Positions 37,646-57,309 of a stretch of DNA of 64,000 nt are shown in pieces. Numbering within the stretch: the first letter of the stretch is position 1; each line of letters starts with the position of its first letter. A program made the position numbers and the translations under genes. The notes beneath the pieces were generated by a model. That model did not search any database. It had not been told where the DNA came from and saw nothing but the letters and a program-made list of their open reading frames with translations. Origin of the DNA: Candidatus Collierbacteria bacterium GW2011_GWB1_44_6 (GTDB lineage Bacteria; Patescibacteriota; Microgenomatia; UBA1400; MFAQ01). The stretch is from contig LCJG01000002.1 in assembly GCA_000998025.1 (NCBI GenBank), positions 891 to 64,890 of the forward strand. Reading direction: 5' to 3'.

Positions 37646-39238
37646 TCAGCAGGCCTTTGCCTCGTCGACATTGAGCTGTTTGGGAGAAAAGTTTGCCAGA
37701 AAGCCAAAGAACTTCCAGGCAGAAAAGAACAAGAACTTGATGTCATTAAAATTCCTAATTTCGATGATTTTCCTATATATAAACTGCGGTGATAAGGCTG
37801 CTTTGTAAAGATCTTGAGTGAGTTCCAGAACTTGGGTTTCTGTTAATGATGATTTCATGACAGGTTTCCTCATATCGTAGTCCTCATAGTCCTCGGATAA
37901 GAGCCAACCTTCCTTTTTACACTCTTTCCATAGCGGTGTGCCCGGATAAGGAATCACGACCGTCGCTTGAAGGGTATCCACATAACCCTTTTTGAAACAT
38001 TTTTTTGCCAATTCCACAGTGTTCTTGGCATCTTGATAGGACTCCCAGGGGTAGCCCATCATGATGGTGAGGTGTGGGTCTAGACCGCCCTTCTTGGCCA
38101 TACGAACGCCTTCTTCAATTTGCTCTACTTTAAGTCCTTTATCAAGATGATCAAGAGTGTATTGATTGGCCGATTCCATACCATAGAGAATAAAGCGGAA
38201 GTTGGCTTTGCCCATAAGATCGTAGTGTTCCTGCTTGAGGGCGTTGAGACGCATATTGCAGCCAAAGACAACTTTTTTGGCGTATCCCGACTCGATCATC
38301 ATATTACAAAAATCCATGAGAGGCTTGCCGATCATAAAGGTACCGGCATCGTCGAAGATTTCTTTGACATGATATTTGTCTACCACATGTCTGACCTCGT
38401 CAAAAAGTCTTTGAGCAGTAAACCTTCGATATGACCCAATTGGGTTGATGGTATGGTCCCAAACACAGAAAGTACACCGGTTCCACCAACAGTCACGACC
38501 TGAGTACATATAGGTGGCCGGAGTGTATTTGTAGTTCCCGTTATAGACGGAATATAGTTCCCATTTAGTCAGGTCACGGTCTACAAAAGGCAACTCGTTC
38601 AGGTCGTGAGCAATACTGGGTTTGCCGCTATTAGCATAAACAACTTTTCCTTTTCTTTTGATTGTTTCCGCTGGTTTTTGTTTGATTCTCTTGTCGTCTG
38701 TTCTCCACCAAACCCCGCCCTCTAATGGTGTGAGATCCCTCGACTGCGCTCGGGATGACGAGGAGAGATGGTCTAGTAAGTTGACGATGACAAAGTCATA
38801 ATCTCCTCCGGTGATAAGATAGTCTACTTTGCTGTTGTCCATCATTTCTTCAGGAGCAAAAGTGACGTGGTCCCCTACCCAAACCAGAAGTAATTTTGGG
38901 AGTTCTTTTTTGAGATCTTTGATTATTTGCCAGTGTTTTTTAACAATTGGGGATTTGGTCTCCACCATCAGGACGTCTGGTTTGAATTTTTTTAACTCGC
39001 GGACCCACTCTTTGTAGGTTTGCTCCTCCGCAATACCATCCATCCATTTCACCTTATATCCATGCTTCTGAGCATTTGAGGCCGCATAGGCAGGCACCAT
39101 AGGATAGATGTATGTCTTGGCGTTGAAGTACTGGAACTGGCGGTTTTGAGAAAGTAGCATGACGCCCTTGTCGGAAGGTATGGGGGGGTAGCCAATGACT
39201 AAACGGAGAGATTTTTTTAATTTTGATTTTTTTAACAT
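37646..39238 (-). CDS. B12-binding-domain radical SAM protein (class B rSAM-like)
   Basis: N-terminal Rossmann-like B12-binding region (KPDVLMVETKSPIV...LLLVWVGDHVTF), then a Cys triad SGRDCWWNRCTFCVW. The spacing is CX4CX2C, not the canonical CX3CX2C. Confidence 0.55.
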   Translation of the reverse strand: MLKKSKLKKSLRLVIGYPPIPSDKGVMLLSQNRQFQYFNAKTYIYPMVPAYAASNAQKHGYKVKWMDGIAEEQTYKEWVRELKKFKPDVLMVETKSPIVKKHWQIIKDLKKELPKLLLVWVGDHVTFAPEEMMDNSKVDYLITGGDYDFVIVNLLDHLSSSSRAQSRDLTPLEGGVWWRTDDKRIKQKPAETIKRKGKVVYANSGKPSIAHDLNELPFVDRDLTKWELYSVYNGNYKYTPATYMYSGRDCWWNRCTFCVWDHTINPIGSYRRFTAQRLFDEVRHVVDKYHVKEIFDDAGTFMIGKPLMDFCNMMIESGYAKKVVFGCNMRLNALKQEHYDLMGKANFRFILYGMESANQYTLDHLDKGLKVEQIEEGVRMAKKGGLDPHLTIMMGYPWESYQDAKNTVELAKKCFKKGYVDTLQATVVIPYPGTPLWKECKKEGWLLSEDYEDYDMRKPVMKSSLTETQVLELTQDLYKAALSPQFIYRKIIEIRNFNDIKFLFFSAWKFFGFLANFSPKQLNVDEAKAC

Positions 39239-39301
39239 GTGTTTTTGTTATTGATGGTTGAGATTGCTTCTCCACCAGAGGCGGATCGCAATGACGGCGC
39301 A

Positions 39302-39568
39302 CTAGGGAAATATTTGCTTACCGTTTTTATCTTTAATAATAATAGCAAGGATTGGGCAACACCGGGCAGCTTCAAGTACTTTTTCAAAAGTATCGCCGTC
39401 GGGATCGGCAATAACAGCCTTGCCGTCTGAATCTCTTAGCAAGAAGGTAAGGGGGGCGGCGATCGAACAAGGACCGGCAGCAATGCATTTGTCGAGATCA
39501 ACGGTAATCTTATACCCGTCGGTGCGAGTGGCTTCGCTGATTGATTCGGTAGTGTTAACTTGGACCAT
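39302..39568 (-). CDS. small ferredoxin-like protein (single-cluster Fd fold with atypical Cys spacing)
   Basis: ITVDLDKCIAAGPCSIAAP...KVLEAARCCPILAI follows the single-cluster ferredoxin pattern, but with CX5C...CC ligands. It lies immediately downstream of the radical SAM gene. Confidence 0.45.
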   Translation of the reverse strand: MVQVNTTESISEATRTDGYKITVDLDKCIAAGPCSIAAPLTFLLRDSDGKAVIADPDGDTFEKVLEAARCCPILAIIIKDKNGKQIFP

Positions 39569-39593
39569 TATTGTATCAGTTTAACATTTATAT

Positions 39594-39619
39594 AGATCCC
39601 CGATCAGGTCGGGGATGAC
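39594..39619. repeat. intergenic palindromic element / hairpin (ATCCCCGA-TCAGG-TCGGGGAT-GACA), a member of the family also found inside coding regions
   Basis: 8-bp GC-rich stem with a 5-nt loop, just downstream of the GT2 stop at 39625. About 15 nt are identical to the copy inside the GT39 gene near 56890. Confidence 0.6.
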
Positions 39620-39624
39620 AAGAA

Positions 39625-40716
39625 CTATCTTGTCAGTTTACCAGTAAACAAAAATCCTTGTATAAATCTGAGTCCGTACCAGAGATGGGTAATGAAGATA
39701 ATGAGGATGGACAAAAGGGCATGAAGTGGTTTTTTTGATTTTTTTAGTACCCAGAGGGCGTTTAAAGATAGAGTTAGGAAATACAGGATAAAACAGTATA
39801 TTCCGAGATTACGGATGACCAAGAGGGCATTAATAACGGGTTTTGCGATGATTATCGGTTGGTAAATTGTAAACGGCTCGGTTACATTGATGGTCTCTAC
39901 ACTAGTTGAGGCGTATAGAGGCAGGGGTGACGTTATGATCATGTAGATAAACCCCAGGAAGATTAAAGAAGGCAGGAAATAAACAAGTTTGAGTGATGTT
40001 TTGGGTAGAATACGGGCAAAAAATCCCCGGTGAAGGCCGAAGTTGCCATTTTGTCTCAGGTGAGCGAACAGGATGGGACGGCGGTGGTGGTAGACGATCG
40101 CTTTTGGTTCGTAAATAATCCTTTTACCCAAGTAATGGGTGAGATCTAGGCAGAGTTTGGTATCTTCCCCCGGCCAGTAATTGGAGTCATAACCGCTAAC
40201 TTTTTTGAAGTCGGTCTTCCTAACTGCCAAATTCATAGAAGGATAATCGTCAACAAATTGTCTTTTGCCAGGAAGGAAGCGGTAGGTATACGGACCGGCA
40301 CCTGCAGGAGAGGCCGAAGCCCAACCGGAAGCCTCTTCCTCCCAGGAAATGTAAGGGGGTGTAACCCCAGGTCCGCCGACCCCGGCAATGCTTTCATTTT
40401 TGAAATGTGGAACTAAGTGTTCAAGCCAGGCACCTGAAGGATAAGCATCGTCGTCTAAAAAAGCTAGAATATCACCTTTGGCTAACCTGCCCCCTTCGTC
40501 CCTCTTTTCGGCTGGGCCCACATAGCTACCATAGTACTTTTGCCTTAACTTGGGGTACTTGAGATTTTCAACTTTGTAATCGCAGATGAGTAAGATCTCG
40601 TAATTCTTGTATGTCTGCTTCTGAATAGCGTTTAAACATTCAATTAGATATGGATTTTTTCTTTTGTAGTCGACAACTATGATTGAAACTAGTGGAGAAT
40701 ATTTATCGGATTTCAC
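39625..40716 (-). CDS. GT2 family glycosyltransferase with C-terminal TM helices
   Basis: LVSIIVVDYKRKNPYLIECLNAIQKQTYKNYEILLICD. The C-terminal 100 aa are hydrophobic. Confidence 0.8.
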   Translation of the reverse strand: MKSDKYSPLVSIIVVDYKRKNPYLIECLNAIQKQTYKNYEILLICDYKVENLKYPKLRQKYYGSYVGPAEKRDEGGRLAKGDILAFLDDDAYPSGAWLEHLVPHFKNESIAGVGGPGVTPPYISWEEEASGWASASPAGAGPYTYRFLPGKRQFVDDYPSMNLAVRKTDFKKVSGYDSNYWPGEDTKLCLDLTHYLGKRIIYEPKAIVYHHRRPILFAHLRQNGNFGLHRGFFARILPKTSLKLVYFLPSLIFLGFIYMIITSPLPLYASTSVETINVTEPFTIYQPIIIAKPVINALLVIRNLGIYCFILYFLTLSLNALWVLKKSKKPLHALLSILIIFITHLWYGLRFIQGFLFTGKLTR

Positions 40717-40725
40717 AAGTTGTTA

Positions 40726-41541
40726 TTATTTGTATTTTAACTTGAGTTTTGGATCGTCCTGCCACAGGTCGGAGCCTCCATCATCGTAATACCGGAGAAT
40801 GTATGTTCTATAAAGGATAGCTAAATAGTCAATGGCAAAATTCTGGACTGATGACATGTCGACATTGCTTGAAAAATTGTGGGTAATTTCCACCGGAGAT
40901 TCAAATATTCTCTTAAAACCCAAGTGGTTGGCCACTGTCAGTATTTCCAGATCAAAAGCCCAACGTTTCACAATAAGCCGCGGCAAGACTTTAACGAGAA
41001 CTTCTCTCTTAAAGACCTTTAACCCAGTCTGAGTATCCGAAACATTTAAACCAAAGAAAAACCTGGTAGCTCTCTGAACAAAAAAAGAGAGAATTTTTCT
41101 CTGCCAAGGATACTCTACTTTACTTGCGTGATGGCGTTTACTTCCGATGATTACGTCTGCGTCGTACCATTTCATATGTTCCAAAGCCAACCCAAGCCCT
41201 TTGGCGTGGAGATCTGAACCGGCATCAATAAAGGCGATAACTCCTCCCCTTGCCCTAGCCATACCAAAACGGATAGCGTAACCCTTACCCCGGTTATCCG
41301 GATAAAAATATATTTTTATGTCTGCAGACTTTGCTTTGATGGCTTTTTCGCGGGTGTGGTCTTTTGATGTTTTTCTACCATCTACAATGCAAATGATTTC
41401 GTATGGGCGGTTTAAGAGATCAAGATATAGTTTTATAGTAAAAAGATCTTTGTCGATAGTTTTACAGTTATACGCAGGAACGATTACAGAGAGAAGAGAT
41501 GGGTCGGCTTTTAGGATTTTATTTTTGGCCACTTTGGGCAT
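40726..41541 (-). CDS. GT2 family glycosyltransferase
   Basis: LLSVIVPAYNCKT...IICIVDGRKTSKD...IAFIDAGSD. Confidence 0.75.
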   Translation of the reverse strand: MPKVAKNKILKADPSLLSVIVPAYNCKTIDKDLFTIKLYLDLLNRPYEIICIVDGRKTSKDHTREKAIKAKSADIKIYFYPDNRGKGYAIRFGMARARGGVIAFIDAGSDLHAKGLGLALEHMKWYDADVIIGSKRHHASKVEYPWQRKILSFFVQRATRFFFGLNVSDTQTGLKVFKREVLVKVLPRLIVKRWAFDLEILTVANHLGFKRIFESPVEITHNFSSNVDMSSVQNFAIDYLAILYRTYILRYYDDGGSDLWQDDPKLKLKYK

Positions 41542-41573
41542 GAGTGAATTATATGACGGGGTGATTGCAGATA

Positions 41574-42824
41574 CTAGTTTTTATTTCTGAAGTAGAAGAG
41601 ATAGAAGATTAGAGAACTGGACAAGAGTACTTGGATGCTGAAGTTAGACCAGATGATACCGGAAAATGAGTGCCTGAAAAGAATAATTAGTACTGGCTGT
41701 AGTACCGTAGCAGCCAACAGAAGGAGGGTGGCTTTGGGCCTTCCTGTCGCCATAAGAAAAGAGAGAATAAACTGGCTAAGAGCAAAGAATACCATGGAGA
41801 AGGCGAATAGACCAAGATATGGTGTTACAGCCAGATACTGAGTCCCCGACAGAATCCGGATGACGAAGGAAGGAAATAGACCAAAAATACATGCCCCGAT
41901 AAGACCGATGGTTGAGATTAAGGATCCAAGCTTGAGAAGAATAGATTTGGCAGATCCGTGGGCAGCGTACCTGTGGGACGCAATAGGAAGAGTTAGGCCA
42001 ATTAGTGGAGTGAGCCCAAAGAGAATCATTCTACCCAAAATTGACAAGGCGGAGTAGAGACCGGAAAAGTAGGAATCAGAGAATGCCCTAATAACTAAGA
42101 TATCGGTAGAAATTAGTGATAGGGTACCAAGAGAAAAAAGAAAACTGTAAACCGTGAAACCGCCAAGTGAGAAGTGCGGAGTTTTTTTAACTTTTATTCG
42201 TGGATATATTGATGGTTTTATATCCCAGTAAATCATTAGAGTAGTAATGATGCCTGCCACAAGCTGGCCAAGAACAGCGCCGGTAGCACCCATACCGAGT
42301 TTAATAAAGGCGATGGACAAAGCAATCGTTAGAATAATATTAATGAAACCGATTAGAGAAATAAAAATAAATTTCTGAAAAGCGGTGTTGTAAGAGTTGG
42401 CGACGACTTGAAATAGAGAAACAAACATACTTATCCCGAGGATTATGAAAGCAACAGAGTTTGCTTTGAATAATTCTGAAAGTGGATTGGCAAATAGAAT
42501 AAGCAACAATCCTAGGGTAATGGTGACTGGACTAAGAGTCTTTAGTAGGTAGTAAAAAAAGAGATTGGTTGAGGTGCTATCGCCTTTTCCGGTATATGCT
42601 GAAACATATTTGGTAACAACTGTGGCGACTGTGCCCATAGGGATACTAAGCAGGTAGGTGAGCGATAGATAAGACAGGAATTCACCATATTCAGCTGGAA
42701 CAAGAAATCTGAGCAGAAGGAGGTGAAAAAAATATCGAAAAATATTCTGAGCAAAGCTGGCAATATAAAAAATAATAGTGCTTTTTGCAGTTGGAGTGGT
42801 AATGGCTTTTAGAAGACGGTGCAT
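41574..42824 (-). CDS. Wzx-like flippase / polysaccharide biosynthesis membrane protein (MOP superfamily)
   Basis: 416 aa with about 12 TM helices and a Wzx-like N-terminus. Confidence 0.5.
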   Translation of the reverse strand: MHRLLKAITTPTAKSTIIFYIASFAQNIFRYFFHLLLLRFLVPAEYGEFLSYLSLTYLLSIPMGTVATVVTKYVSAYTGKGDSTSTNLFFYYLLKTLSPVTITLGLLLILFANPLSELFKANSVAFIILGISMFVSLFQVVANSYNTAFQKFIFISLIGFINIILTIALSIAFIKLGMGATGAVLGQLVAGIITTLMIYWDIKPSIYPRIKVKKTPHFSLGGFTVYSFLFSLGTLSLISTDILVIRAFSDSYFSGLYSALSILGRMILFGLTPLIGLTLPIASHRYAAHGSAKSILLKLGSLISTIGLIGACIFGLFPSFVIRILSGTQYLAVTPYLGLFAFSMVFFALSQFILSFLMATGRPKATLLLLAATVLQPVLIILFRHSFSGIIWSNFSIQVLLSSSLIFYLFYFRNKN

Positions 42825-42879
42825 GGGATTTTTTCAGGATTGCTTCGGTTCGGGTACGACGAAGTGACGATTGTATCTT

Positions 42880-44370
42880 TTATTGTAGATTAAATATGTA
42901 GGCAGTGAAAGCACCGGAATGGACCGGCTTACAATTTTGGTCAGCAGTACAAGGAATATTCTTTTGCTCAGCAATAATGACACGATAGAGGGGTTTTTCT
43001 GTAGAGATTTCGTCAGGATAAGTCCAGCCAAAAAATTCGTCAGCGAAACTAAGCGTGGGACGGTTTCCGTAGGTTTGAAATAGGTAGTGCCAACCACCAT
43101 ACGGGTGATACTTACGCGGGTCTTTCCCCTCTGTCTCCAGGCTGAATGGCCTATCCTCTATCTTGACCATGACTTGATCGACTAAGTCTCTTCTAGCGAC
43201 TAGGCCGTATGGAGATTGTGTTGTGGTGAAAATAGTAATACTGTTTATGGCGGCATACACTACTAATAATGGGGCTAGAGCTTTCCAGCTTAAATGCTCT
43301 AAAAACAAAGCCAGCACAATCGTGAATAATATAAAGAAGCTTAAAAGATAATACTCGGCACCCCATTGAGGATAGAGAACATAGAAAGCAACAATCGAGA
43401 TGATCATGCCACCTAGGATACGGAGGTTTTTATTGGCTTTGCTTCTAACGAAGAAGGAAACAAAGGCGATAAAGGAAAAGAGAGAAAGAAATGTGTTTGG
43501 TCTAGTCATAAATGCACCGTGAGCTCCGAGTCCGTGTTCTTCTTGGATATTGGTATAGAAGTTTAAGAAAATTAACCGGCTGGTAGAAGAGAATATGTTT
43601 CTTGCATGGGTGAATAGTTTGTGGAAACTAAAAGAGGAATCGGAGTTGTTGGATCCCGCTAAAAACTTTAGAGGACCAAGGATATTATCAAAATTATGAT
43701 TAATATCGAAGATTATTAGTGGCAAAACCACCAATGCGTAGGAGACTATAGCCACAAACCAGGTTTTTATGCTAATTTTCCTGAAGCTTCTGATTAATAA
43801 ATATAAGATCAGTGGCCAGTAAACAGCGAGGGAGAGATGTACATGCAGGGCAGTGGCCATAAGAATCGATGTCAGAATATACCAACGAGAATCATTTTTT
43901 GCTTGATAAAGGGAAAATAGCAGCCAAATTGTAATAAACATGATTGGTGTAGGATTCCAGAAACGATGGTCAAAATATATGAGCAGTGCCGAGAAGCCAT
44001 ATATTAGCGATGACACAATTCCAACCTTCTTGGAAAATATTTTTGAGGAGACATGGTATAAGCTAAGCGTTGTAATCAGACCAAATAAAGATGAGAAATA
44101 TGCCAGTATACTCAGATCACCTTTTGATATCCAAAACAAAAGAGCATTGAGATAAGTGAAGCCAGGACCTAGGTAGAAGCCAAAGTTGCTGGCACTCACG
44201 CCGATCCAAATAGGGTGAAAGTCCTTTACCTGAGACCAGGATATAAGAGCTTGATATTCTTCGTCGAAATTGAAAGAAAACCAGTCTGCCGCTTTCCAGA
44301 AACGAAGTACACACAATAAGGCAAATATAATAATGGGTAGTACTGTTTGTTTGGCTCTTTTCACTGTCAC
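42880..44370 (-). CDS. GT-C membrane glycosyltransferase, ArnT/PMT-like
   Basis: VLRFWKAADWFSFNFDEEYQAL is the loop-1 DE motif. Multi-TM. Confidence 0.5.
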   Translation of the reverse strand: MTVKRAKQTVLPIIIFALLCVLRFWKAADWFSFNFDEEYQALISWSQVKDFHPIWIGVSASNFGFYLGPGFTYLNALLFWISKGDLSILAYFSSLFGLITTLSLYHVSSKIFSKKVGIVSSLIYGFSALLIYFDHRFWNPTPIMFITIWLLFSLYQAKNDSRWYILTSILMATALHVHLSLAVYWPLILYLLIRSFRKISIKTWFVAIVSYALVVLPLIIFDINHNFDNILGPLKFLAGSNNSDSSFSFHKLFTHARNIFSSTSRLIFLNFYTNIQEEHGLGAHGAFMTRPNTFLSLFSFIAFVSFFVRSKANKNLRILGGMIISIVAFYVLYPQWGAEYYLLSFFILFTIVLALFLEHLSWKALAPLLVVYAAINSITIFTTTQSPYGLVARRDLVDQVMVKIEDRPFSLETEGKDPRKYHPYGGWHYLFQTYGNRPTLSFADEFFGWTYPDEISTEKPLYRVIIAEQKNIPCTADQNCKPVHSGAFTAYIFNLQ

Positions 44371-44450
44371 AGGGATAGTTTAGCATTGTGGTGTAAAATG
44401 AGGCCATGGATTTTATCGGATTTGCTCGAAGAACATGTAACAAATAAAAA

Positions 44451-45398
44451 ATGAAAACAAAAAATCCTTTGTTTTCTGTAGTTATTCCCGTCTATAACGA
44501 GGAAGGTAATGTCTTACCTTTATTCAAAGAAATAAAAAAAGTGATGACTAGGTTGGGGAGTTTTGAGATAATATTTGTAAACGACGGCTCGACGGACAAC
44601 ACAGGAGTTGAACTGAAACGGTTGAGAAAGGTAAAAATCGTACAATTTAGAAAGAACTTTGGGCAATCTGCGGCGCTGGATGCAGGCGTAAAGGCTGCCA
44701 AAGGAAAGTATGTCGTTACGCTGGACGGAGATGGTCAAAACGACCCGGCTGACATACCCAAGCTATTTGGAAAACTGAACCAGGGTTACGATGTGGTATG
44801 CGGGTGGCGATACAACAGAAAGGATAACTGGATACGAAAATTTATTTCTGAAGGAGCAAGGAGGCTTAGGTCCGTTTTGGTCGATGACAAGGTGCACGAC
44901 GCGGGATGTACTCTGAGGGTATACAACAAGGTGTGTTTTACGGACTTAGATTTGGCCGGTGAAATGCATCGAATGATCCCAGCGATTCTTAGGTGGAGGG
45001 GTTTTAGAATAACTGAACTCAAAGTGAACCATCGGCCAAGAATAATTGGAAAGAGTAAGTATGGAATGAGCCGCACCATAAAGGGTTTTCTTGACATGCT
45101 TCTAATCTGGTTTACTAGAAAATACAACAACCGTCCGTTGCATCTATTTGGCACGGTCGGTCTGTCCCTTATATTTGCCTCAGTATTGTTATTGTCGGCT
45201 CTGGCAATATTGAAAACTTTTTATGGCTATAGTCTATCTGATAAGATCTGGCCACTGGTTGGCATGATAAGTTTCTTAGCGGGGATACAGCTGTTGGTCT
45301 CGGGTATTCTGGCCGACTTAACCATAAAAAATAATACTGTCAGTAAAGAATGGATGATTAAAACAGTGAGGGGACCTAAGAAGATTTCTACGAAATGA
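44451..45398 (+). CDS. polyprenyl-phosphate glycosyltransferase, GtrB/ArnC-like GT2 with two C-terminal TM helices
   Basis: LFSVVIPVYNEEGNV...FVNDGSTDNT...FRKNFGQSAALDAGV...VVTLDGDGQNDPADIPKL, plus a C-terminal TM pair (LHLFGTVGLSLIFASVLLL..., ...WPLVGMISFLAGIQLLVSGIL). Confidence 0.85.
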   Translation: MKTKNPLFSVVIPVYNEEGNVLPLFKEIKKVMTRLGSFEIIFVNDGSTDNTGVELKRLRKVKIVQFRKNFGQSAALDAGVKAAKGKYVVTLDGDGQNDPADIPKLFGKLNQGYDVVCGWRYNRKDNWIRKFISEGARRLRSVLVDDKVHDAGCTLRVYNKVCFTDLDLAGEMHRMIPAILRWRGFRITELKVNHRPRIIGKSKYGMSRTIKGFLDMLLIWFTRKYNNRPLHLFGTVGLSLIFASVLLLSALAILKTFYGYSLSDKIWPLVGMISFLAGIQLLVSGILADLTIKNNTVSKEWMIKTVRGPKKISTK

Positions 45399-46521: not shown

Positions 46522-46620
46522 TGGTAAGGATGATTATAACAACTAAAAAAACTCAAAAACTCGAAAATTCAAAACGGTGGACTTGTTGATTTCGGGTATT
46601 GTTTGGTGTTAAATGGATAT

Positions 46621-46956
46621 ATGGGAAAATATAAAGTATGGCTATATCGGGATAGAAACGGTGATTCACCGGTCGAAGATGTTATAAAAAAACTGAATAA
46701 AGTTCAAGGATCAAAGGTGAGTAGACAAATTCTTCATTTATCTGAGTTTGGTATTTCGATACACAATAAATCACTTAGGAAGCTGACAAAGACGTCACTG
46801 TGGGAGTTAAGAATTCTTGGAAGAGATAACATTCGTCTGTTTTGCACCGAAACGAAGTATGGCATTTGTATTATCCATGTATTTGTTAAGAAAAGCCAAA
46901 AAACACGTATTTCGGAGATATTGATCTCTTTGTCCAGGCTCAAGACGATATCTTGA
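46621..46956 (+). CDS. higB: RelE/ParE-superfamily toxin (HigB/Gp49-like addiction-module killer)
   Basis: MGKYKVWLYRDRNGDSPVEDVIKKL...LWELRILGRDNIRLFCTE...ICIIHVFVKKSQKT has the Gp49/HigB-like pattern and size. I place the start at the ATG at 46621, not the upstream alternative start codon at 46603. Confidence 0.65.
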   Translation: MGKYKVWLYRDRNGDSPVEDVIKKLNKVQGSKVSRQILHLSEFGISIHNKSLRKLTKTSLWELRILGRDNIRLFCTETKYGICIIHVFVKKSQKTRISEILISLSRLKTIS

Positions 46957-46987
46957 CAAAATATATCTTTTAAGGTATATTTTACCC

Positions 46988-47272: not shown

Positions 47273-47392
47273 ATGTAATGTGCATAAAATGAACATTCCT
47301 AGGTGGAATGAGATTGGCCGAAAGTTTTTTCGGTACTTAGCTCTGCTGAGAAGCGCCCCGTTTTTTACTCGCAATGACGAATACGACGATTA

Positions 47393-49653: not shown

Positions 49654-50424
49654 GAAGCCACGATAGCGGAAGTACAAGCTCAGAAAAGTACCTAGGGGTT
49701 TGAAAAATAAATAATTTAAGGTATTAAAGAGGTTCACTTTGACACCAGCATCTTTGAGCTGGTGGGCATGGAGGCTAGAGTAAGAATTTTCTCTGAGTAA
49801 ATATCGGGAAAAATTTGGCGTAGCAAGGTGGTCTAGATCAGACATGAGCCAACCAGTGACACCCTTGACTATCATTTGTTCGTGAACATCCTTGGCAGGA
49901 AGTCTGGCTTTACCTCTTTGGAATAGGCGGATGACCGGATCGGGGTATTGGCCGGCGTTCTCGAGATATCTATTCAGGAAGAAATTTTTTCTAGGTAGGT
50001 AGTATGCGGAGGCCGGGGATCTGAGCAATTGTGGCTCAGAAAAAATCTTTATTATTTTATTTATTGAGGATTTGAGGGGAGAAATCCAACTGTCATAACC
50101 GAAATATGATCCCTCCAAGATGCCGAGTATTTCTTTGACCATTTCTTTGGTCACTCTTTCGTCCGCGTCCATTTGCAGAATCCAATCTGATTTGGCCGAT
50201 CGATTGGCAATATCTTTTTGAACATGGAAAACAGGATTATTTGGCCGCAGTATAACTTTGACCCCCAGCTTTTTGGCGATCTCAGCAGTATTGTCCGTGG
50301 AGTAGCCATCAACGACGACAATCTCATCGGCAAAATCCTTGACCGATTCCAGACAGGCGGCAATATTCGCCTCTTCATTATATGTAGCGAGAGTGACAGA
50401 AATGGTTTGGCGTTTTGTTTTCAT
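49549..50424 (-). CDS. GT2 family glycosyltransferase
   Basis: ISVTLATYNEEANIAACLESVKDFADEIVVVDGYSTDNT. Confidence 0.8.
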   Translation of the reverse strand: MKTKRQTISVTLATYNEEANIAACLESVKDFADEIVVVDGYSTDNTAEIAKKLGVKVILRPNNPVFHVQKDIANRSAKSDWILQMDADERVTKEMVKEILGILEGSYFGYDSWISPLKSSINKIIKIFSEPQLLRSPASAYYLPRKNFFLNRYLENAGQYPDPVIRLFQRGKARLPAKDVHEQMIVKGVTGWLMSDLDHLATPNFSRYLLRENSYSSLHAHQLKDAGVKVNLFNTLNYLFFKPLGTFLSLYFRYRGFLDGFPGFVFSLYSGLHHAFSYMKLWEIYKDEEYK

Positions 50425-52232
50425 TTTTTGATGGTTGAGATTGCTTCGTCGACTTCGTCTCCTCGCAATGGCGGAGGGGAGGTGGAGATAAATTTGAACA
50501 TGGTGCCTCCGGAAGGAGATTTTACTGTACCGATGACGTTGTTGTCATCTACTTTCTCTTCGGCGGTTATCAGGAGGGTATTCGGAAGCAACTTGTCCTG
50601 TTCATAATTGATAGTCCGGAATTCATACTTGCCTAGTTTGCGGCCGGTGGCAAAGCCAAAGTGGTCGGGGGAAGACATAACAATATCTCTTTGCAGATCC
50701 GCCGGCGGATACTGGGTAAAGAAAGCGATCAGAATATATGGCTGGTCGTAGCGGTCGGTAACGATAATGTGATCGTATTTGTCGTAATTATCTTTGGTGT
50801 AAACGGCGATTTGATCGAAGCCATACTGCCAAGCATACGGAAGCTCTTTGGGATAGTGGACGTAATACATATGTAGATAACGGGAAAAGTCGTAAGAGAT
50901 AAATAAGGTTGCGATGGCTAGGAAAATGGGAAGTAGTTTGGGAAGGTGACTTTTGATGAACACAAAAAACTCAACAAGACCAAGAGCGGAAATAATCATC
51001 AGTGGGACAGCCATATTTGCTGCTCTTAGGGCGTGAGGGGACTGGAAGGTAATTGAGGCGGCCAGGGGTGCAATGAGGAACCAAGCGAAAATTAGTTTCT
51101 TGCCAGAAGAATCCAACTTTATCAAAGAAATAAATCCTAGAACGAAGACGGGCAGAAGGACCAGTATACTTTGACCGGTTTCCGGCACCTTGCTTCTGGC
51201 TATGGCGTCACCATTGAGAAAAAGGAAATCGGGAGAGTAGTGCGACAAATAGTTTTCGATAAATCTGAGCGAATATGAAAGGTAGCGGTTGTGAATAAGC
51301 CTGACCGGAAGAGTATCTTTATCGGTGTGCTGGAGCCGGTAATTGGTGGCCTGCCACTCCGGCCCGGTGTCGGCAAAAATGGAGACACCTGAAAAACGCG
51401 ACTGGCCTTCTTTGGAGAGAAGTTGGGTGGCAATTGGAAGGGAAAGAAGGAGGCCGAGGAGACAGGAGAAGAAAAAGGTTCTGGTGGTTGTTGGAGTGAG
51501 ATCCCTCCACTTCGGTCGGGATGACGATAAAGCAGGAATGACAACAGTACCTGAGAATAGATCTTTCCAGTAGATAATGACCAAGGATAAAGAAAGTAGA
51601 GGCGAGATGACTCTGGCGGAATGATAGGTATAGAGACTGAGAGCGAGTGAAGTGACAAAGAGAAAGAAATAGTTTGCCTGCCTCCCGGCAGGTAAAGTTT
51701 TTTCAATCCCTTTCAAAAAACCCCAGACCCCAAGAAGCATGAAAAAAGTGGCGGCGTTTACTTCCCAACCACCCCGGGAGAAGTGAAGATGCCAGGGGGA
51801 AATGGCGAGGAGGAGGGCGGAGATATGAGGAAAGTATTTATATGTTGTAGTTACTGGATGGATTCCCGCCTTCGCGGGAATGACAGCAGTGACGGGGGGG
51901 AATAATAGTTTGACGATTAGGTAGATGAGGAGGACGCTGGCGACTCCCAATATGGCGGAGGGGAGACGGACGGCCGTGACGGTGAGGCCGAGGAATTTGA
52001 CGAAGGGCAGAACCAGATAGAAATAGACGGGGGGTTTGTAATCGTCAAAGGAACGGAAGACCTGAGGCCAGGCGACAGAGTGTTCGTCTTTGCCCGTCTC
52101 AATAAGACTCCAAGCATTGTAGCCGATCGCCGCTTCATCAGCATTGAGACCAGCGGGAAAACTGCTCAGAAAAGGCAGTCTGAGTAAGGCTGCTAAGATG
52201 ACAATGGCGATGATGAAAAAATGTTTTTTCAC
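50421..52232 (-). CDS. GT-C glycosyltransferase, GT39/PMT_2 family (ArnT/Pmt-like) paralog 1 of a tandem array
   Basis: LLRLPFLSSFPAGLNADEAAIGYNAWSLIETGKDEHS...AVRLPSAILG is the canonical PMT_2/ArnT N-terminus. 603 aa. Confidence 0.8.
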   Translation of the reverse strand: MKKHFFIIAIVILAALLRLPFLSSFPAGLNADEAAIGYNAWSLIETGKDEHSVAWPQVFRSFDDYKPPVYFYLVLPFVKFLGLTVTAVRLPSAILGVASVLLIYLIVKLLFPPVTAVIPAKAGIHPVTTTYKYFPHISALLLAISPWHLHFSRGGWEVNAATFFMLLGVWGFLKGIEKTLPAGRQANYFFLFVTSLALSLYTYHSARVISPLLSLSLVIIYWKDLFSGTVVIPALSSSRPKWRDLTPTTTRTFFFSCLLGLLLSLPIATQLLSKEGQSRFSGVSIFADTGPEWQATNYRLQHTDKDTLPVRLIHNRYLSYSLRFIENYLSHYSPDFLFLNGDAIARSKVPETGQSILVLLPVFVLGFISLIKLDSSGKKLIFAWFLIAPLAASITFQSPHALRAANMAVPLMIISALGLVEFFVFIKSHLPKLLPIFLAIATLFISYDFSRYLHMYYVHYPKELPYAWQYGFDQIAVYTKDNYDKYDHIIVTDRYDQPYILIAFFTQYPPADLQRDIVMSSPDHFGFATGRKLGKYEFRTINYEQDKLLPNTLLITAEEKVDDNNVIGTVKSPSGGTMFKFISTSPPPLRGDEVDEAISTIKK

Positions 52233-53872
52233 TGAGCTTTGGTTTTGATGATTCTTAAAGCAACTTCCCCATTGGGATATAAAACGTCCATGTGTTTATC
52301 AATGGTGGGTAGAGAAAAATCGAAGTCCTCGGGAAAGTTCCCAATAGTACCCACAAAAATAGTATCCGGCTGGGTTTGTACTTCGGAAAGCCCTGACTGG
52401 TGGAACTCTACCCGGCCAACATTAGCAACCTTGCCGACGTCTAGCCCCCCCGACTGGAACTCATTAATTTTTTGATAAGTGGCGGGGTCAAAGCGGGAAT
52501 AAAAAAGATAGAAGATGTATGGCTGGCCAAAGACGTCGGTAATGACCGCTTTGCTTTCCGGGTACTCACTGACAAACTGAATCGCCTCTTTGAAGCCATA
52601 TTGGAATTCTCTGGCGTAAGTAAAATTTGTATGGACAAATAATAGATCAAGAAAATAAACGAAGAAGACTAGGGTGGCGAGAAGATTAATAAAGAAGAAC
52701 AGCTTAATTTTGCTAAAAGCGTAAAACGCCCCTAAACCACAAATTATGGCTAAGGGAATGGTCAAGAAAAAGGCCCTGACGGTGGAGTACTCTGACAAAG
52801 TAAGTGAGCCAGTAATGGGTGCGAGTAACAGTAGCCCGGCTATGAGCAGTGAATTCTTTTGATGAGAAAATTTTATAAGAAAGACTAACCCAAGCAAGAA
52901 CCATACTATATCAAAAGGCAGAAGCATGCCCATGCCCGGAATGTGACCTCGTTCGACGATATCGGTGCCTTCGAAGAAGAGCAAATTGGGACTGAGATGC
53001 TTGAGATAGCGGCTGGCGACAAGACGTGAAGTGAGCTGGAACTGGTTGTGAAATAAATTTAGACTGACCGGATTATTCTCGTCGATGTTTTTTATTTCCT
53101 GACTAATTCCCGGACGGTAACCAAAGATGCTGAGACGTTTTAACCGATTTCCCGCTTCTCCGGAAGCAGTTGACAGGTAAAATGCCAAAAAGAAGGCCAT
53201 CGAAAAAGCAAGAAGCGCTCTATTGAATTTGACTGAGGTGTATTGTTTGAAGTTTGTAGAAAAGTCTGACCAAAAAAGTATGACCGGAAGTAAGAGAACT
53301 AAGGGGGTAAGAAGCTTGGCGGCCTGATAAGTCAGAAAAGTAAGCAAGGCCAGGACAATGGACCAACCGAGGTACTTACCCGAGTGAATAAAGCGAATCA
53401 GAAAATATAAAGAGAAAAGTAACAGAGTGGCGAAGATATTGGTTTCCCAGGCTCCCCGGCTGAAATGAATATGCCAGGGCATAAGGGCTAGAGAGAGGGC
53501 ACAAAAAGACGCCAAGAGAGTCTTGTTTTTGTTTTCTCTAACAATTTCAGAGACCAATAAGAAGACACCGTAGATGGCTAAGATACCAGCCAAAGCGCTG
53601 GGGAGACGGGTGGCGAACTCGGAGAGACCCAGAATGGCGATGGGAGGAATGGCTAAATAGACATAAAGTCCGGGTTTGTAATCACCGAAGCTTTTAAAAA
53701 CAATGGGCAGGAACTTTCCGAATTCATCCCGGCCGGTTTTTATAATGGAAAAAGCGTTGTAACCCAAAGCAGCTTCGTCCCAGGTGAGAGCGTTGGGTAG
53801 TGAACCCAGCTGATAAAGTCTGAGGAGAGAACCGATAACTATGGCAAAGATTAATAACCAATATTTTTTCAT
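52229..53872 (-). CDS. GT39/PMT_2-family glycosyltransferase paralog 2
   Basis: LLRLYQLGSLPNALTWDEAALGYNAFSIIKTGRDEFG...ATRLPSALAG. Confidence 0.8.
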   Translation of the reverse strand: MKKYWLLIFAIVIGSLLRLYQLGSLPNALTWDEAALGYNAFSIIKTGRDEFGKFLPIVFKSFGDYKPGLYVYLAIPPIAILGLSEFATRLPSALAGILAIYGVFLLVSEIVRENKNKTLLASFCALSLALMPWHIHFSRGAWETNIFATLLLFSLYFLIRFIHSGKYLGWSIVLALLTFLTYQAAKLLTPLVLLLPVILFWSDFSTNFKQYTSVKFNRALLAFSMAFFLAFYLSTASGEAGNRLKRLSIFGYRPGISQEIKNIDENNPVSLNLFHNQFQLTSRLVASRYLKHLSPNLLFFEGTDIVERGHIPGMGMLLPFDIVWFLLGLVFLIKFSHQKNSLLIAGLLLLAPITGSLTLSEYSTVRAFFLTIPLAIICGLGAFYAFSKIKLFFFINLLATLVFFVYFLDLLFVHTNFTYAREFQYGFKEAIQFVSEYPESKAVITDVFGQPYIFYLFYSRFDPATYQKINEFQSGGLDVGKVANVGRVEFHQSGLSEVQTQPDTIFVGTIGNFPEDFDFSLPTIDKHMDVLYPNGEVALRIIKTKAQ

Positions 53873-55554
53873 GGAAGTTCGATTATTTTGAAGGCGACAG
53901 ATCCGTCCAAGAAATTAATAGTCTTGAGAACATTAGCACCGGCAGGGATGCGGTCAGGGGAGGCGACCAAGAGGCTCTTGGAAGTGGGCATTATGTCACC
54001 GCTTTCGAGAGTGAGAGAAGTAAATTGTTCCACGGGAATTTGCCAGTCATTTACGAAGTAATAGTCACCTACCTTATCGGTCCAGAACCAGTCCGACTTC
54101 CCAAAACGGATATTATCACCTCCGGGCTGAAGCACTTGAGGATGAATCCGGTTATAAAATGCGTAAAAAATGTGTGGTTCTCCATAAAACTTGGAAATGA
54201 AGAACTTCGGATATTGTTTTTGAGTATTCAAAAAATCTAAAACTTCCCGGTAACCATATTGCCAAGATTTTGAGTAGCTCTTGGCGTAAGTCACGAAATA
54301 ATCATTTGCATAGATGGCAAAGTTGCCAATAGTGAGAAGGAAAATAACTGCAGTCAAAATTTTTCCGGTGGTGGCAGATAGCTTGGTCTGCAAGAACAGT
54401 AGTCCCAAGCCGCCGATAATTACCATGGCAGGGATCATGGGATTTGGACGTAGGGCCTGAGGGGGATCGACAGTAAGAGCTGAAGCGATAGGGGAGAGCA
54501 GAAACCAGGAAAGGATCAGTTGGTGGGATTTTTCACCCGGGTTTTTAATAATGAAAAATAGACCGGCGATAAACAAAACCATGACAGGAAAACCTAAAAG
54601 ATTTCTACCGGGAATGGCAAACTGGAACTGAGCTCCCCTACTCTGATTAAAAAAGTCAGTGGTGAAATAGCCAAAATAATTATTGATAAATGTTTGAACA
54701 AAATAGACAGGGCGATTGTAGACAAATTTGGCGACAAGAGGTGGTAAGCCGCTCTCGATTCTTTTCTGGCCAAGGGTATAGGCCGTCGATTCCGTGATGA
54801 TATTAAGTTTGCCATAGCGGGCAGTACCCGTGCCGGCAAAAATTTGATAAGCGACAATAGAGGCGAAGGCTCCGAGAATAAAAATAGAAAATAAAAGAGT
54901 GCGGGTGATTTTTATTTTTTTCCAATAAATGACGATGAAAGCTAGGAGAAGGACCGGGACAAAGACCCTGGCAGTATTGTAGGTATGCAGTGACAAACCA
55001 AAAAGAAAGGCAGACGGAATAAATAATACAGATTTTTTTAGACCGGTGAGTAAAAAATAGGTAGCGAAAATAATCAGAGTCAGTGCGAGATTGGCTTCTA
55101 GCGCCGGGCGGGAAATAAAGAAATGCCAAGGAAGAAGAGCAAGGAAGAAGGCTGAGAGTAATGGGAGATTTAGAAAATGCTTCTGTTTGGGCAAAAAATT
55201 CGCAATGACAGATGAGGAAAAGAGTTCACGAGTGAGGAGGAAGATACCGGGGATGGCAAGAGTGCCGGCCAAGGCGGAAATGAAACGGAGAGAGAAGGTG
55301 GTGAGACCAAAAAGCCAAACAGGGATTACAGAGAGATAGATATATAAGGGAAGTTTGTAATCTCCAAAAGCACGGAAGATCAAAGGGAATTTGACTCCCC
55401 ATTCGTCTTTGCCGGTCAGCAAAATGGAGTAGGCGTTGTAACCATGACTGATCTCGTCCCAGTTGGGAGAGACGGGAAATTTGTCCAGTAGAAAAAATCT
55501 CAGGAAGCCACCAAAAAGAGTGATTAGCAGTATATAAAGTAGAGTTTTTTTCAT
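53869..55554 (-). CDS. GT39/PMT_2-family glycosyltransferase paralog 3
   Basis: FLRFFLLDKFPVSPNWDEISHGYNAYSILLTGKDEWG...SLRFISALAG. Confidence 0.8.
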   Translation of the reverse strand: MKKTLLYILLITLFGGFLRFFLLDKFPVSPNWDEISHGYNAYSILLTGKDEWGVKFPLIFRAFGDYKLPLYIYLSVIPVWLFGLTTFSLRFISALAGTLAIPGIFLLTRELFSSSVIANFLPKQKHFLNLPLLSAFFLALLPWHFFISRPALEANLALTLIIFATYFLLTGLKKSVLFIPSAFLFGLSLHTYNTARVFVPVLLLAFIVIYWKKIKITRTLLFSIFILGAFASIVAYQIFAGTGTARYGKLNIITESTAYTLGQKRIESGLPPLVAKFVYNRPVYFVQTFINNYFGYFTTDFFNQSRGAQFQFAIPGRNLLGFPVMVLFIAGLFFIIKNPGEKSHQLILSWFLLSPIASALTVDPPQALRPNPMIPAMVIIGGLGLLFLQTKLSATTGKILTAVIFLLTIGNFAIYANDYFVTYAKSYSKSWQYGYREVLDFLNTQKQYPKFFISKFYGEPHIFYAFYNRIHPQVLQPGGDNIRFGKSDWFWTDKVGDYYFVNDWQIPVEQFTSLTLESGDIMPTSKSLLVASPDRIPAGANVLKTINFLDGSVAFKIIELP

Positions 55555-57263
55555 TTCTTAAAATCGAAGACTTCCATTATTATCTCACCAGTAGGCGTTA
55601 GAACCTGATAGATTGTATGCCTATCGGTAGGTAAGGGGGCAATTTTTTGGGCAATATACAAAGTGTGTTCGTTCCTATCTTCCTGCCAGTCTAGAGTCTC
55701 AAAAATGTACTTGTCGCCGAGTCGGTAATGGTCCATCTGGTCCAGATAAGAGATGGGCCTTTTCTTTATCTTTATGTCCCAGGTTTGGGTAGCTAACTGA
55801 AACTGTTCAGGGGGAGTATGCTGATAAAAAGCGACATAGACCTGAGACTGGGTGCCCTTTTCAACTAGGACGGCTTGATAATTTCCCTCTATTTCCGAGA
55901 CTACCTTCATGGCATCTCTCCATCCATATGAAATTGCTTTGGGAAAAGTCACTCTAGAATTAAAATAATAGTCTTCCAGATAAAAAATAGTCAAAACTAG
56001 AGCGAAGATAATAAAGGTTGTCAAAATTAATTTGCGGAATTTAAATTTTATTTCGAGAAGGTTTACAGCTCCAAAGGCAGCGATAATTTCCCAGACAACC
56101 AAAAAGGAACCGGCCCTATTTGGACGATAACCTTCTTTGGTAAGGGCGGCGGGGATGGCTGCCAATAGGAGCCAGAGAATTAGTGGACGGGCGTCAAAAT
56201 CTTGGTTGTCTTTCTTCCGTATTAATAAAAATAAACCGTACAATACCAAGGGAAGCATCCAAAAGTATAAAAGTCCCCTTCCGGGAATAACTGAATAAGT
56301 GATTTCCCTACCTCCCTCTGTGAACCAAAAGGGTAGTGAGAAATAACTGAGATAGTTTTCGGCAAACTGAGAAGTGACTGTAAATATTTTCCGGTGAAAG
56401 AGCCTGGGGATTTTGGGGTGAACTTTGGAGAGAGGCGAGTAAAAGGACTGGTCATCTATCTGTTTGAGATTGACAGTGTCCAGGTTGGTAATCAGGAGAT
56501 CCCCTCCCCTTTTGGCCGAGTTTCCGAATACCATATCTAATCCGAGTGGGCTGATCAGAATAACGACGAGCATGATGGAGGGAATGAGGGGACGGAGCCC
56601 TCGATCAAAAATTTGTTTTCGATAGATATAAACCATGGAAATGGCGAAAAGCGGGACAAAAACTTTGGTGGAGTGATAGGCGTAGAGACTAAAGCCCCAA
56701 AGGAGACTGGCGTAGACAAACTGGCGGTGGTCCCTCAGACCTTGCAAAAAGAAGTAGAGGCCAAGGGGAAAAAGAAAGGAGGTGAGGTTTACTTCCAGAG
56801 CAGTCCGGGAAAATTGGATATGCCAAGGGGAGAGGGCGAGGAAGAGAGCGGCGTAAAGCGGAAGGTTATTGAATGGATTCCCGATCAGGTCGGGAATGAC
56901 ACGTTTTTTGGAAACGTGTGGGATTCGGGGGAAAAGTTCGGAGGCAAGGAGAAAGACGGCAAGGATGGCTAGAGTACCAAAAATGGCGCTGGGAAGACGG
57001 GCGGCAAATTCATTGAGCCCAAAAAGTGCAATGCTTGGCATCATCAAATACGTTTGAAGAGGGGCTTTGTAATCCAAGAAGGACTTGAAAGAAACAATCG
57101 GCCAGGCAATTCCCCACTCATCTTTTCCTGTTTGAAGGAGACTGTAGGCGGTGTAGGCTTGGCTGGCTTCGTCGGGAGAGAAACCTGCAGGAATTGAACC
57201 TAGAAAGATTAAGCGGATCGATAGTCCGAGAAGAAGGATCAAAGCCAGAAGTTTTAACTTCAT
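55551..57263 (-). CDS. GT39/PMT_2-family glycosyltransferase paralog 4
   Basis: SIRLIFLGSIPAGFSPDEASQAYTAYSLLQTGKDEWG...AARLPSAIFG. Confidence 0.8.
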   Translation of the reverse strand: MKLKLLALILLLGLSIRLIFLGSIPAGFSPDEASQAYTAYSLLQTGKDEWGIAWPIVSFKSFLDYKAPLQTYLMMPSIALFGLNEFAARLPSAIFGTLAILAVFLLASELFPRIPHVSKKRVIPDLIGNPFNNLPLYAALFLALSPWHIQFSRTALEVNLTSFLFPLGLYFFLQGLRDHRQFVYASLLWGFSLYAYHSTKVFVPLFAISMVYIYRKQIFDRGLRPLIPSIMLVVILISPLGLDMVFGNSAKRGGDLLITNLDTVNLKQIDDQSFYSPLSKVHPKIPRLFHRKIFTVTSQFAENYLSYFSLPFWFTEGGREITYSVIPGRGLLYFWMLPLVLYGLFLLIRKKDNQDFDARPLILWLLLAAIPAALTKEGYRPNRAGSFLVVWEIIAAFGAVNLLEIKFKFRKLILTTFIIFALVLTIFYLEDYYFNSRVTFPKAISYGWRDAMKVVSEIEGNYQAVLVEKGTQSQVYVAFYQHTPPEQFQLATQTWDIKIKKRPISYLDQMDHYRLGDKYIFETLDWQEDRNEHTLYIAQKIAPLPTDRHTIYQVLTPTGEIIMEVFDFKK

Positions 57264-57309
57264 GAGTATATTATACTAATCTCCGGTGTGACAATGTTAA
57301 ACTTGAGTC

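Follow-up and report, generated by a model that had tools for sequence, protein, structure and literature searches.

The closest described relatives of the elements treated here are the short hairpins bound by Ssn nucleases. The main text of Chenal et al. (2025, Nat Commun 16:2388; PMC11893778) presents the Neisseria Transformation Sequence (NTS), CGTCATTCCCGCGMAVGCGGGAATCYRG, which contains the classical dRS3 repeat, and a degenerate Ssn-related motif (SRM), HGTCWYN(0-2)YYVSBRHN(0-5)WNVSBRGN(0-2)RNCYNB. According to the same text, Ssn proteins are single-domain GIY-YIG nucleases of about 94 amino acids (aa), which bind SRM-type hairpins and cut only single-stranded DNA (ssDNA) just 5' of them; the bases upstream of the palindrome are critical for cleavage, and the C right after the palindrome is critical for binding. 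The ssn genes are typically bracketed by their own SRMs, and top-strand binding and cutting are shown there for the Neisseria and Wolbachia pairs only; the REP/BIME-RAYT system is also discussed in that text. The current work concerns short hairpin elements in a 64-kb stretch of DNA (the window) from Candidatus Collierbacteria GW2011_GWB1_44, a member of the Candidate Phyla Radiation (CPR; Microgenomates) from Rifle groundwater. All coordinates refer to the window. The top strand of each element coincides with the minus strand, and all genes concerned are likewise encoded on that strand.

The elements belong to the superfamily of NTS/dRS3/SRM hairpins. In every copy, a hairpin of variable sequence stands between the head (C)GTCAT and the tail ATC(T/C)(C/A); the elements of the window are 25-43 nt long. 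At one site in a radical SAM gene, different hairpin bodies are found between the constant ends CGTCAT...ATCTCA; thus, what defines the family is the pair of constant ends, with a hairpin between them that varies. These constant portions are the same parts that are reported to be critical for Ssn cleavage (the upstream bases) and binding (the C after the palindrome). The copy at 51858-51885(-) agrees with the Neisseria NTS consensus at 26/28 positions, and the SRM motif is fitted by this copy and by that at 39592-39620, with the copy at 56873-56901 one base off. It is probable that the elements are SRMs of the NTS/dRS3 superfamily, linked to Ssn in other bacteria, which colonize intergenic spacers and permissive protein loops in Collierbacteria.

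These matches exceed expectation in the window, where the SRM motif was found three times against 0.16 expected, CGGGRATGAC three times against 0.2, and the type B consensus described below twice with at most 3 mismatches against 0.00. The third SRM match (60978-61008) is native coding sequence. The surrounding stretch, 60957-61008(-), had been considered as an element for this match, its folding (z = -3.5) and its NTSvar-like head and tail, and was rejected on a gapless alignment to its orthologue in L272, a locus of 21.7 kb on a 790-kb contig with the gene order of the window and 64-85% protein identity. The degenerate motif alone therefore yields false positives. A generic finder (GTCAT, stem, closing arm and C), to which family-specific patterns were added, was also applied, and the comparison set comprised 240 fetched loci plus the window. 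The generic search for head, stem and tail gave 311 matches in 755 kb against 17 in shuffled sequence. Its hit at 26424-26474 was discarded as a chance match, about 1.4 being expected per 64 kb.

Seven full copies and two orphan heads are present in the window, all on the gene strand and all between 38.7 and 57 kb, with none in the first 38 kb. Five of the seven full copies lie in frame inside genes. The host genes are those of a B12-binding radical SAM protein (37646-39238(-), 530 aa; Pfam PF04055 and PF02310) and of two GT39/PMT_2 glycosyltransferases, paralog 1 (50421-52232(-), 603 aa) and paralog 4 (55551-57263(-), 570 aa). At the protein level, paralog 1 matches UW68_C0002G0050 of Candidatus Collierbacteria GW2011_GWB1_44 with 100% identity. 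An element-free orthologue of paralog 1 has 547 aa against these 603 aa, and the elements supply nearly all of the extra residues.

The copies can be sorted by their hairpins. Type A, TGTCAT(T/C)CCCG-loop-CGGG(A/G)ATC(C/T)AT, forms a perfect 8-bp hairpin, with DNA folding z-scores between -2.6 and -3.9 against shuffled sequences, and is represented by three copies. The copy TGTCATCCCCGACCTGATCGGGGATCTAT at 39592-39620(-) is intergenic, between a gene of glycosyltransferase family 2 (GT2) and a ferredoxin gene (z = -3.9); the NTS-like copy TGTCATTCCCGCGAAGGCGGGAATCCAT at 51858-51885(-) is located in loop 1 of paralog 1 (VIPAKAGIH; z = -3.1), and a short orphan head, GTCACTGCT, stands before it at 51885-51893(-); the copy TGTCATTCCCGACCTGATCGGGAATCCAT at 56873-56901(-) is located in loop 1 of paralog 4 and encodes VIPDLIGNP within residues 119-130 (z = -2.6). 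Type B, TCGTCATCCCGAsCGmAGTsGAGGGATCTCAC, has two copies. One, TCGTCATCCCGAGCGCAGTCGAGGGATCTCAC at 38730-38761(-), lies in frame in the radical SAM gene and encodes SSSSRAQSRDLTP (residues 159-171); the other, TCGTCATCCCGACCGAAGTGGAGGGATCTCAC at 51496-51527(-), is found in loop 2 of paralog 1 within VVIPALSSSRPKWRDLTP (residues 230-247). Directly upstream of the latter copy is an orphan 5' half-site, GTCATTCCTGCTTTATC (51529-51545(-)), which has the head and left arm without the closing arm and encodes VIPAL. The TGCGA-type includes CGTCATTGCGATCCGCCTCTGGTGGAGAAGCAATCTCAACCAT at 39254-39296(-), in the 63-nt spacer between the ferredoxin and radical SAM genes (DNA fold -6.1 kcal/mol), and CCGCCATTGCGAGGAGACGAAGTCGACGAAGCAATCTCAACCAT at 50431-50472(-), which has a degenerate head, GCCAT, and forms a 17-residue C-terminal extension, PPLRGDEVDEAISTIKK, of paralog 1. 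The tail of this last copy, GAAGCAATCTCAACCAT, is identical to the tail of the copy at 39254-39296.

Two further features of paralog 1 can be noted. Its stop codon overlaps the start of the next gene (ATGA, 50421-50427) a few bases past the tail of the C-terminal TGCGA-type element; thus, the open reading frame (ORF) of paralog 1 has been extended up to the downstream start. A palindrome without head or tail, CCTGCCGGGAGGCAGG at 51677-51692(-), adds seven residues (KTLPAGR, 178-184), and this stretch is missing in 113 of 120 homologues. In L272, the orthologue of paralog 3 has a TGCGA-type element whose interior is a near-identical palindrome (LPAGRQA).

A preliminary description of this DNA had reported five copies of one palindromic element. 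All five are present in the sequence; the paralog 4 copy (GAATGG...GACA) lies at 56871-56901 instead of 56881-56911, and the second paralog 1 copy starts at 51496 instead of 51507, each about 10 nt off. The four peptides quoted were correct (radical SAM 159-171; paralog 1 112-127 and 230-247; paralog 4 119-130). The notion of a single element has to be replaced by at least three hairpin types (NTS-like or type A, type B and TGCGA-type) with a common head and tail, and the palindromic character claimed for all copies is pronounced in the 8-bp stems of type A and weak in type B. The similarity of the two type B copies, estimated at about 33/36, amounts to 29/32 core positions and 30/36 overall; at the exact coordinates, the likeness between the radical SAM and GT39 genes nevertheless stands well above chance, as the match counts given above indicate. 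The pattern searches of the window yielded additional copies, namely the two TGCGA-type elements (39254-39296(-) and 50431-50472(-)) and the two orphan heads (51529-51545 and 51885-51893).

Comparison with orthologues reveals clean empty sites, and in close relatives the loops in question hold different hairpins with a common head and tail, which implies a fast turnover. At the radical SAM site, about 115 of 120 homologues have no insert and read LSKG-T.LEGG. Inserts were observed only in the closest homologues (83-87% identity), each insert being different, and equally close homologues are empty. The inserts are SSSRAQSRDL in the window, SSSRSKSRDL, SLRGVKRRGNL, a proline-rich insert and two tandem units; at the nucleotide level, those of the window and of two related loci (L005 and L006) differ in the hairpin body, start with CGTCAT and end with ATCTCA(C/T). 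Among 120 homologues of paralog 1, loop 1 is expanded in 44 and not in 76, and loop 2 is expanded in 17 and not in 103. Many of the expanded loops carry element peptides in different frames, such as VIPAKAGIH, VIPGLTRNP, VIARSERDVAIS, VIPDLIGNP, SLRGAKATWQS, SFRAKSRNL, VIASEARQS and HSGLDPES, and the 17 homologues with a filled loop 2 carry element peptides other than that of the window.

The syntenic locus L272 contains ten elements, all on the gene strand, of which about three share a position with the window and the rest are private to L272. An identical element is found only at loop 1 of paralog 1. In the ferredoxin/radical SAM spacer of L272 the same ATTGC/GCAAT stem encloses a different interior, and loop 1 of paralog 4 has a TGCGA-type element (SLRGAKATWQS) instead of type A. 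In another relative, L273, both loops of paralog 1 are empty, and the paralog 1 orthologues of L272 and L273 end in ...STK without a C-terminal element. In L049 the radical SAM site is empty, a GTCAC-headed palindrome lies in the ferredoxin/radical SAM spacer, a type A copy resides inside the GT2 gene, where the window has none, and the counterpart of the copy at 39592-39620 is decayed. The L005 orthologue of that copy shows a compensatory double change, from CCCCGA/TCGGGG to CCCGGA/TCCGGG. The elements are therefore nucleotide-level units that are gained, lost and exchanged, as the empty sites in homologues and the copy-by-copy differences among L272, L049 and L273 demonstrate; the earlier proposal that shared protein ancestry does not explain them is borne out.

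The element load is patchy among related loci: the glycosylation locus of the window has seven full copies, the related 21.6-kb locus L004 has none, and the syntenic L272 has ten. All copies in the window and L272 (17/17) lie on the gene strand. Genes of the toxin-antitoxin or abortive-infection type (helix-turn-helix plus Gp49, AbiEii) stand beside the ferredoxin/radical SAM pair in L005 (612-1268 and 3337-4228) and L272 (18595-19253), and none is present in the window. Such gene content is another sign that the locus is a hot spot of rearrangement.

A further footprint was observed upstream of the elements. Within the 240 loci plus the window, orphan 5' half-sites at 8-40 nt from full elements were found 49 times upstream and 2 times downstream, with 3.1 expected. 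Frequently the half-sites are repeated in tandem every 19-21 nt (examples are L175, L227, L168, L165, L185 and L159), and two occur in the window. No mention of a polar half-site footprint of this kind was found in the main text of PMC11893778. The polarity of the half-sites, together with the swapped bodies and tandem units, points to a polar process acting 5' of an existing hairpin, for which cleavage with copy-choice repair, slippage and nested insertion are candidates. Such a process fits the known cut position of Ssn, to which it may be linked.

The in-frame copies stand out against a general tendency of the elements to avoid ORFs. Among the fetched loci, 15/63 elements of CPR genome loci lie inside ORFs against a fraction of 0.57 expected for random positions, and 77/288 of non-CPR loci do so against 0.80 expected. 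In other CPR genomes the elements pile up in intergenic clusters. Given this avoidance, the in-frame copies of the window are most simply a subset of survivors of selection, enriched in the glycosylation locus.

Structural models agree with this residence in tolerant positions. The AlphaFold model of paralog 1 has a predicted local distance difference test score (pLDDT) of 85.8 and a predicted template modelling score (pTM) of 0.88, and that of the radical SAM protein has values of 83.1 and 0.86. In the paralog 1 model, loop 1 (residues 111-130, pLDDT 67) is placed between helices 85-110 and 134-143, and loop 2 is placed between helices 222-226 and 247-272, with pLDDT below 50 at residues 229-236, the lowest-confidence segment. 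In the radical SAM model, helix 147-161 is followed by a loop with residues 159-171, where pLDDT drops locally to 72. The inserts are thus predicted to be tolerated as low-confidence inter-helix segments in otherwise confident models, which agrees with the loop insertions envisaged in the preliminary description. That description had also placed the inserts of paralogs 1 and 4 in the same inter-helix loop, with paralogs 2 and 3 lacking them, and this arrangement was found again.

Elements of the same types are widespread in bacteria. An exact type B pattern with 22 fixed bases was scanned in metagenome contigs and gave at least 118 loci; the GC content of these contigs ranges from 0.35 to 0.72, which indicates that many phyla carry type B. 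A type A variant with an ACCTGAT loop was scanned in contigs from one genome per species and gave at least 119 genome loci. The matches listed include 17 CPR loci, Collierbacteria and Daviesbacteria among them, as well as Bacteroidales, Dehalococcoidia, Nitrospirales, alpha-, beta- and gamma-Proteobacteria, Treponema, Kiritimatiellia and Armatimonadota. In viral contigs the type A variant occurred in 28 stretches and type B in none, and no ssn gene was found in the viral loci; this near-absence from viral contigs implies that the elements are not phage-borne. With the NTS/dRS3/SRM superfamily distributed across bacteria in this way, a family special to this lineage is not supported.

The paired positions of these copies covary in strict Watson-Crick fashion. 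In 127 type A copies, the first variable pair is C-G in 73 and T-A in 54, with neither C-A nor T-G; the second pair is C-G in 74 and G-C in 52, with one C-C. In type B, the positions N1 and N8 form Watson-Crick pairs in 103/111 copies. The hairpin is thus under constraint, and the absence of G·T pairs in these copies speaks for a hairpin in DNA, or for a templated palindrome, rather than for a structure in RNA.

In other bacteria the elements adjoin genes of Ssn type. Small GIY-YIG ORFs of about 95 aa were assigned by PF01541 and are called cd10448-like here. Type B copies are located on both sides of such an ORF in L078 and in L013/L063; in L065 type B lies upstream and a different hairpin downstream, and in L108 type B and other hairpins lie on the downstream side only. 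Type A adjoins a GIY-YIG ORF in L175 (both sides), L201 and L155, and lies about 800 nt from one in L176. In L014, two further hairpin variants flank the ssn gene, and a type B copy is present on the same contig. As both types adjoin GIY-YIG ORFs in other bacteria, type A and type B behave there as genuine SRMs, even though type B misfits the published motif.

Other GIY-YIG genes were encountered near type B copies as well. A decayed small GIY-YIG ORF of another subfamily (MYYVYILK..., with internal stops) lies about 350 nt from a type B copy in L103 (GC 0.35), and three related contigs, L111 (3112-4074), L048 (2692-3108) and L101 (1110-1286), have small GIY-YIG ORFs of a second, different class (FYCYVLRSQKTGRRYVGS...) at about 300 nt from type B. 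This second class suggests that cd10448 may not be the only subfamily with which the hairpins associate. In the region 9900-10800 of L103, beside an intact tRNA and the decayed ORF, there are also tRNA-like copies in which the anticodon region is replaced by an inverted element, GTCCCGAAAGCTTTCGGGATGAC.

The following course of events is proposed for Collierbacteria. Ssn-type hairpins would have settled in the few spacers between genes and, with unusual frequency, in surface loops of glycosylation-locus enzymes that can accommodate them. Selection would leave only those copies that keep the frame open and fall in tolerant loops, which would account for the coding copies being all in frame and encoding short hydrophilic peptides. 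Occupied sites would be used again, close relatives showing different bodies, tandem units and orphan 5' halves at one and the same nucleotide position. The pattern suggests that new copies are templated at, or converted from, existing copies by way of the shared head and tail. As to the driving force, an Ssn-type nuclease, or some other specific enzyme, might promote the spread in this lineage; such a role is inferred, as is the chemistry by which copies are inserted. A bolder extension is that the SRM hairpins are actively propagating, that new copies are templated at existing ones, with half-site arrays and body swaps as the footprints of single-strand cleavage and copy-choice, and that they form an engine for rewriting loops in CPR bacteria that may gate the recombination of incoming ssDNA through an Ssn-like nuclease. 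This extension is tentative, and we consider it rather doubtful.

Several observations weigh against reading the elements as Ssn-linked SRMs that spread in this manner. A search of the 64-kb window by regular expression, phmmer and hmmsearch revealed no Ssn-like or other GIY-YIG ORF, and none was found in L004, L005, L006, L049, L272 or L273. The 17 CPR genome loci contain none either; about 250 kb of CPR sequence was sampled, in which about one ssn gene would be expected at the non-CPR rate, so this absence is uninformative and not negative. A protein search seeded with the Ssn homologue of L108 returned only names of Proteobacteria and Acidobacteria and no CPR-named match. The published degenerate motif does not cover the type B and TGCGA-type copies, and type B forms only a 5-bp outer stem, with DNA folding z-scores near 0 (+0.36 and -0.29). 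At the radical SAM site, the filled version has the 31-nt element in place of about 7 nt of the empty one without target-site duplication, and removal of the element does not restore the frame; filled sites are therefore not simple insertions, and target-site duplication and precise excision, both considered for this site, were rejected on the filled/empty comparison. Moreover, the main text of PMC11893778 shows that Ssn cuts ssDNA, not that it mobilizes hairpins. Some of these facts are also those expected if the elements were orphan relics, that is, SRM-type hairpins without a cognate nuclease in Collierbacteria which persist by mutation, hairpin slippage and gene conversion. The ssn gene is absent from all CPR sequence examined, decayed copies exist (the intergenic copy of L049 and the degenerate head of 50431-50472), and variation at the same site could partly be divergence in situ. 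However, the window and L272, with proteins 70-85% identical, share only about 3 of about 14 element positions, L004 has no element in 21.6 kb, point mutation alone leaves the different hairpin bodies at one site unexplained, and the ssn gene was only sampled for in about 250 kb of CPR sequence. The relic explanation is accordingly regarded as improbable.

Other classes of repeat or signal were considered as well. The elements resemble the repetitive extragenic palindromes (REP) and bacterial interspersed mosaic elements (BIME) mobilized by the RAYT enzyme, an IS200/IS605-like Y1 transposase, in being short imperfect palindromes and in that some CPR loci have them clustered between genes in mixed orientation, as with the 13 in 2.6 kb of L185; an origin as miniature inverted-repeat transposable elements (MITEs) of ordinary insertion sequences may be considered together with this. 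Against it, the conserved head is GTCAT and not of the GTAG type, the gene bracketed by them is a GIY-YIG nuclease in nine loci (no RAYT-directed search having been made), neither terminal inverted repeats beyond the hairpin nor a target-site duplication is seen, and a length of 25-40 nt is far below MITE size; such an origin is highly improbable. About as slight is the chance that the elements act at the level of RNA, as terminators, stabilizers of mRNA or other cis-regulatory hairpins. Every copy in the window and L272 is on the transcribed strand and would form a hairpin in the mRNA, but most window copies lie inside coding sequence and none precedes a T-run, no pairs of the G·U type occur in the 127 copies, and Rfam holds no family matching the elements; elsewhere the elements take both orientations relative to ORFs (same strand in 7/15 and 39/77). 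A selected peptide motif, whether convergent or a shared module, might be suspected from the related peptides (VIPxxxG..., SSSRxxxRDL) in several proteins. Yet one and the same nucleotide element is translated in more than one frame and is found between genes as well (VIPDLIGNP versus HSGLDPES-type; SSSRAxxRDL versus VIPSxxEGS versus RHPExxRGIS), and the conservation of nucleotides is above that of peptides. An assembly artefact, which the preliminary description had named as a condition that would undo its claim, is contradicted by the insert-bearing radical SAM protein, identical on 11 independent contigs from different runs (ENA, JGI and Logan assemblies). The explanation by peptide motif or artefact is effectively refuted.

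The host locus itself is rich in glycosylation genes. Five GT39/PMT_2 paralogues at about 30-36% mutual identity are present, four of them in tandem (50421-57263) and one at 59197-60858, and a more distant relative is located at 60855-62354. In the region 50421-62354, the GT39 array is set within a cluster of GT2 and GT4 glycosyltransferases, methyltransferases and the B12-radical SAM gene, and its order is kept in L272. Cumulative GC skew climbs monotonically over all 64 kb, the plus strand being G-rich. Most long ORFs are on the minus strand from about 35 kb on, which makes the element top strand the C-rich strand.

In the literature, only the Ssn paper proved relevant. A search for papers on palindromic elements in CPR bacteria found none, and a full-text search gave nothing relevant on element-derived peptides or on type B and TGCGA sequences. 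The main text of PMC11893778 does not mention CPR. In that main text and in the literature searched, no report was found of the occurrence in CPR, of a high in-frame coding share, of the turnover at protein-loop hot spots, of the type B and TGCGA-type variants that escape the motif, or of the polar arrays of half-sites.

The Ssn/NTS system was described only in 2025, and this locus and its relatives offer data on junctions that the Neisseria work lacks and that bear on how the hairpins multiply: clean empty sites, filled sites, swapped hairpin bodies, tandem units and polar orphan half-sites. A nearly identical sequence of 25-28 nt is common to Neisseria, Bacteroidales, Dehalococcoidia and CPR bacteria, and the published SRM motif misses common variants (type B, TGCGA-type) which still bracket ssn genes. 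In a compact genome, a protein can become about 10% longer through these elements. Their peptides, such as VIPAKAGIH, VIPDLIGNP, SLRGAKRRGNL and SSSRAQSRDL, are recurrent as odd low-complexity insertions and spurious hypothetical proteins in metagenome annotation, and deserve to be identified there as element-derived. If the templated propagation considered above were true, it would rewrite surface loops of envelope and glycosylation enzymes in CPR bacteria, and it might gate the recombination of incoming ssDNA in organisms that naturally scavenge DNA.

Comparison with better-known repeats helps to place these elements. Rickettsia palindromic elements (RPEs; Ogata et al. 2000) are selfish repeats 100-150 bp long, are specific to Rickettsia, and reside in frame in unrelated protein-coding genes at surface positions. 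The elements described here share with them the in-frame residence at permissive positions, but are 25-43 nt long and occur across bacteria; to our knowledge, RPEs have neither sequence similarity to the Collierbacteria elements nor a link to a GIY-YIG nuclease. The RPE-like label of the preliminary description is thus apt for the mode of residence and fails as a statement of kinship, since size and sequence family differ, and the resemblance is one of analogy only. Correia elements and other MITEs have terminal inverted repeats and target-site duplications and measure at least 100 bp. They are likewise small non-autonomous repeats within or beside genes, but neither terminal inverted repeats nor duplications were observed here. 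In REP/BIME systems, the RAYT enzyme is a Y1 transposase of the HUH class, the REPs are essentially extragenic, and the head is of the GTAG type. The likeness extends to short ssDNA hairpins, mosaic intergenic clusters and a gene for a small dedicated enzyme flanked by its own repeats. The differences are in the enzyme class (Y1 HUH versus GIY-YIG) and in the conserved head, the GTAG type of which was not found in the elements (no RAYT profile search having been made).

The NTS/dRS3/SRM hairpins are the closest of these systems. As described in the main text of PMC11893778, they have the same layout of head, hairpin and tail, form hairpins of 20-50 nt with strand-specific orientation, and lie near genes of envelope and membrane proteins. 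The conserved 5' flank CGTCAT and the C after the palindrome, which give an SRM its orientation, are found in all copies. The Collierbacteria elements differ in that the type B and TGCGA-type bodies lie outside the published motif, and their host is a CPR bacterium with a reduced genome. They also differ in their place relative to genes: 2% of NTS are inside genes in N. meningitidis according to that text (PMC11893778), whereas five of seven full copies are in frame here.

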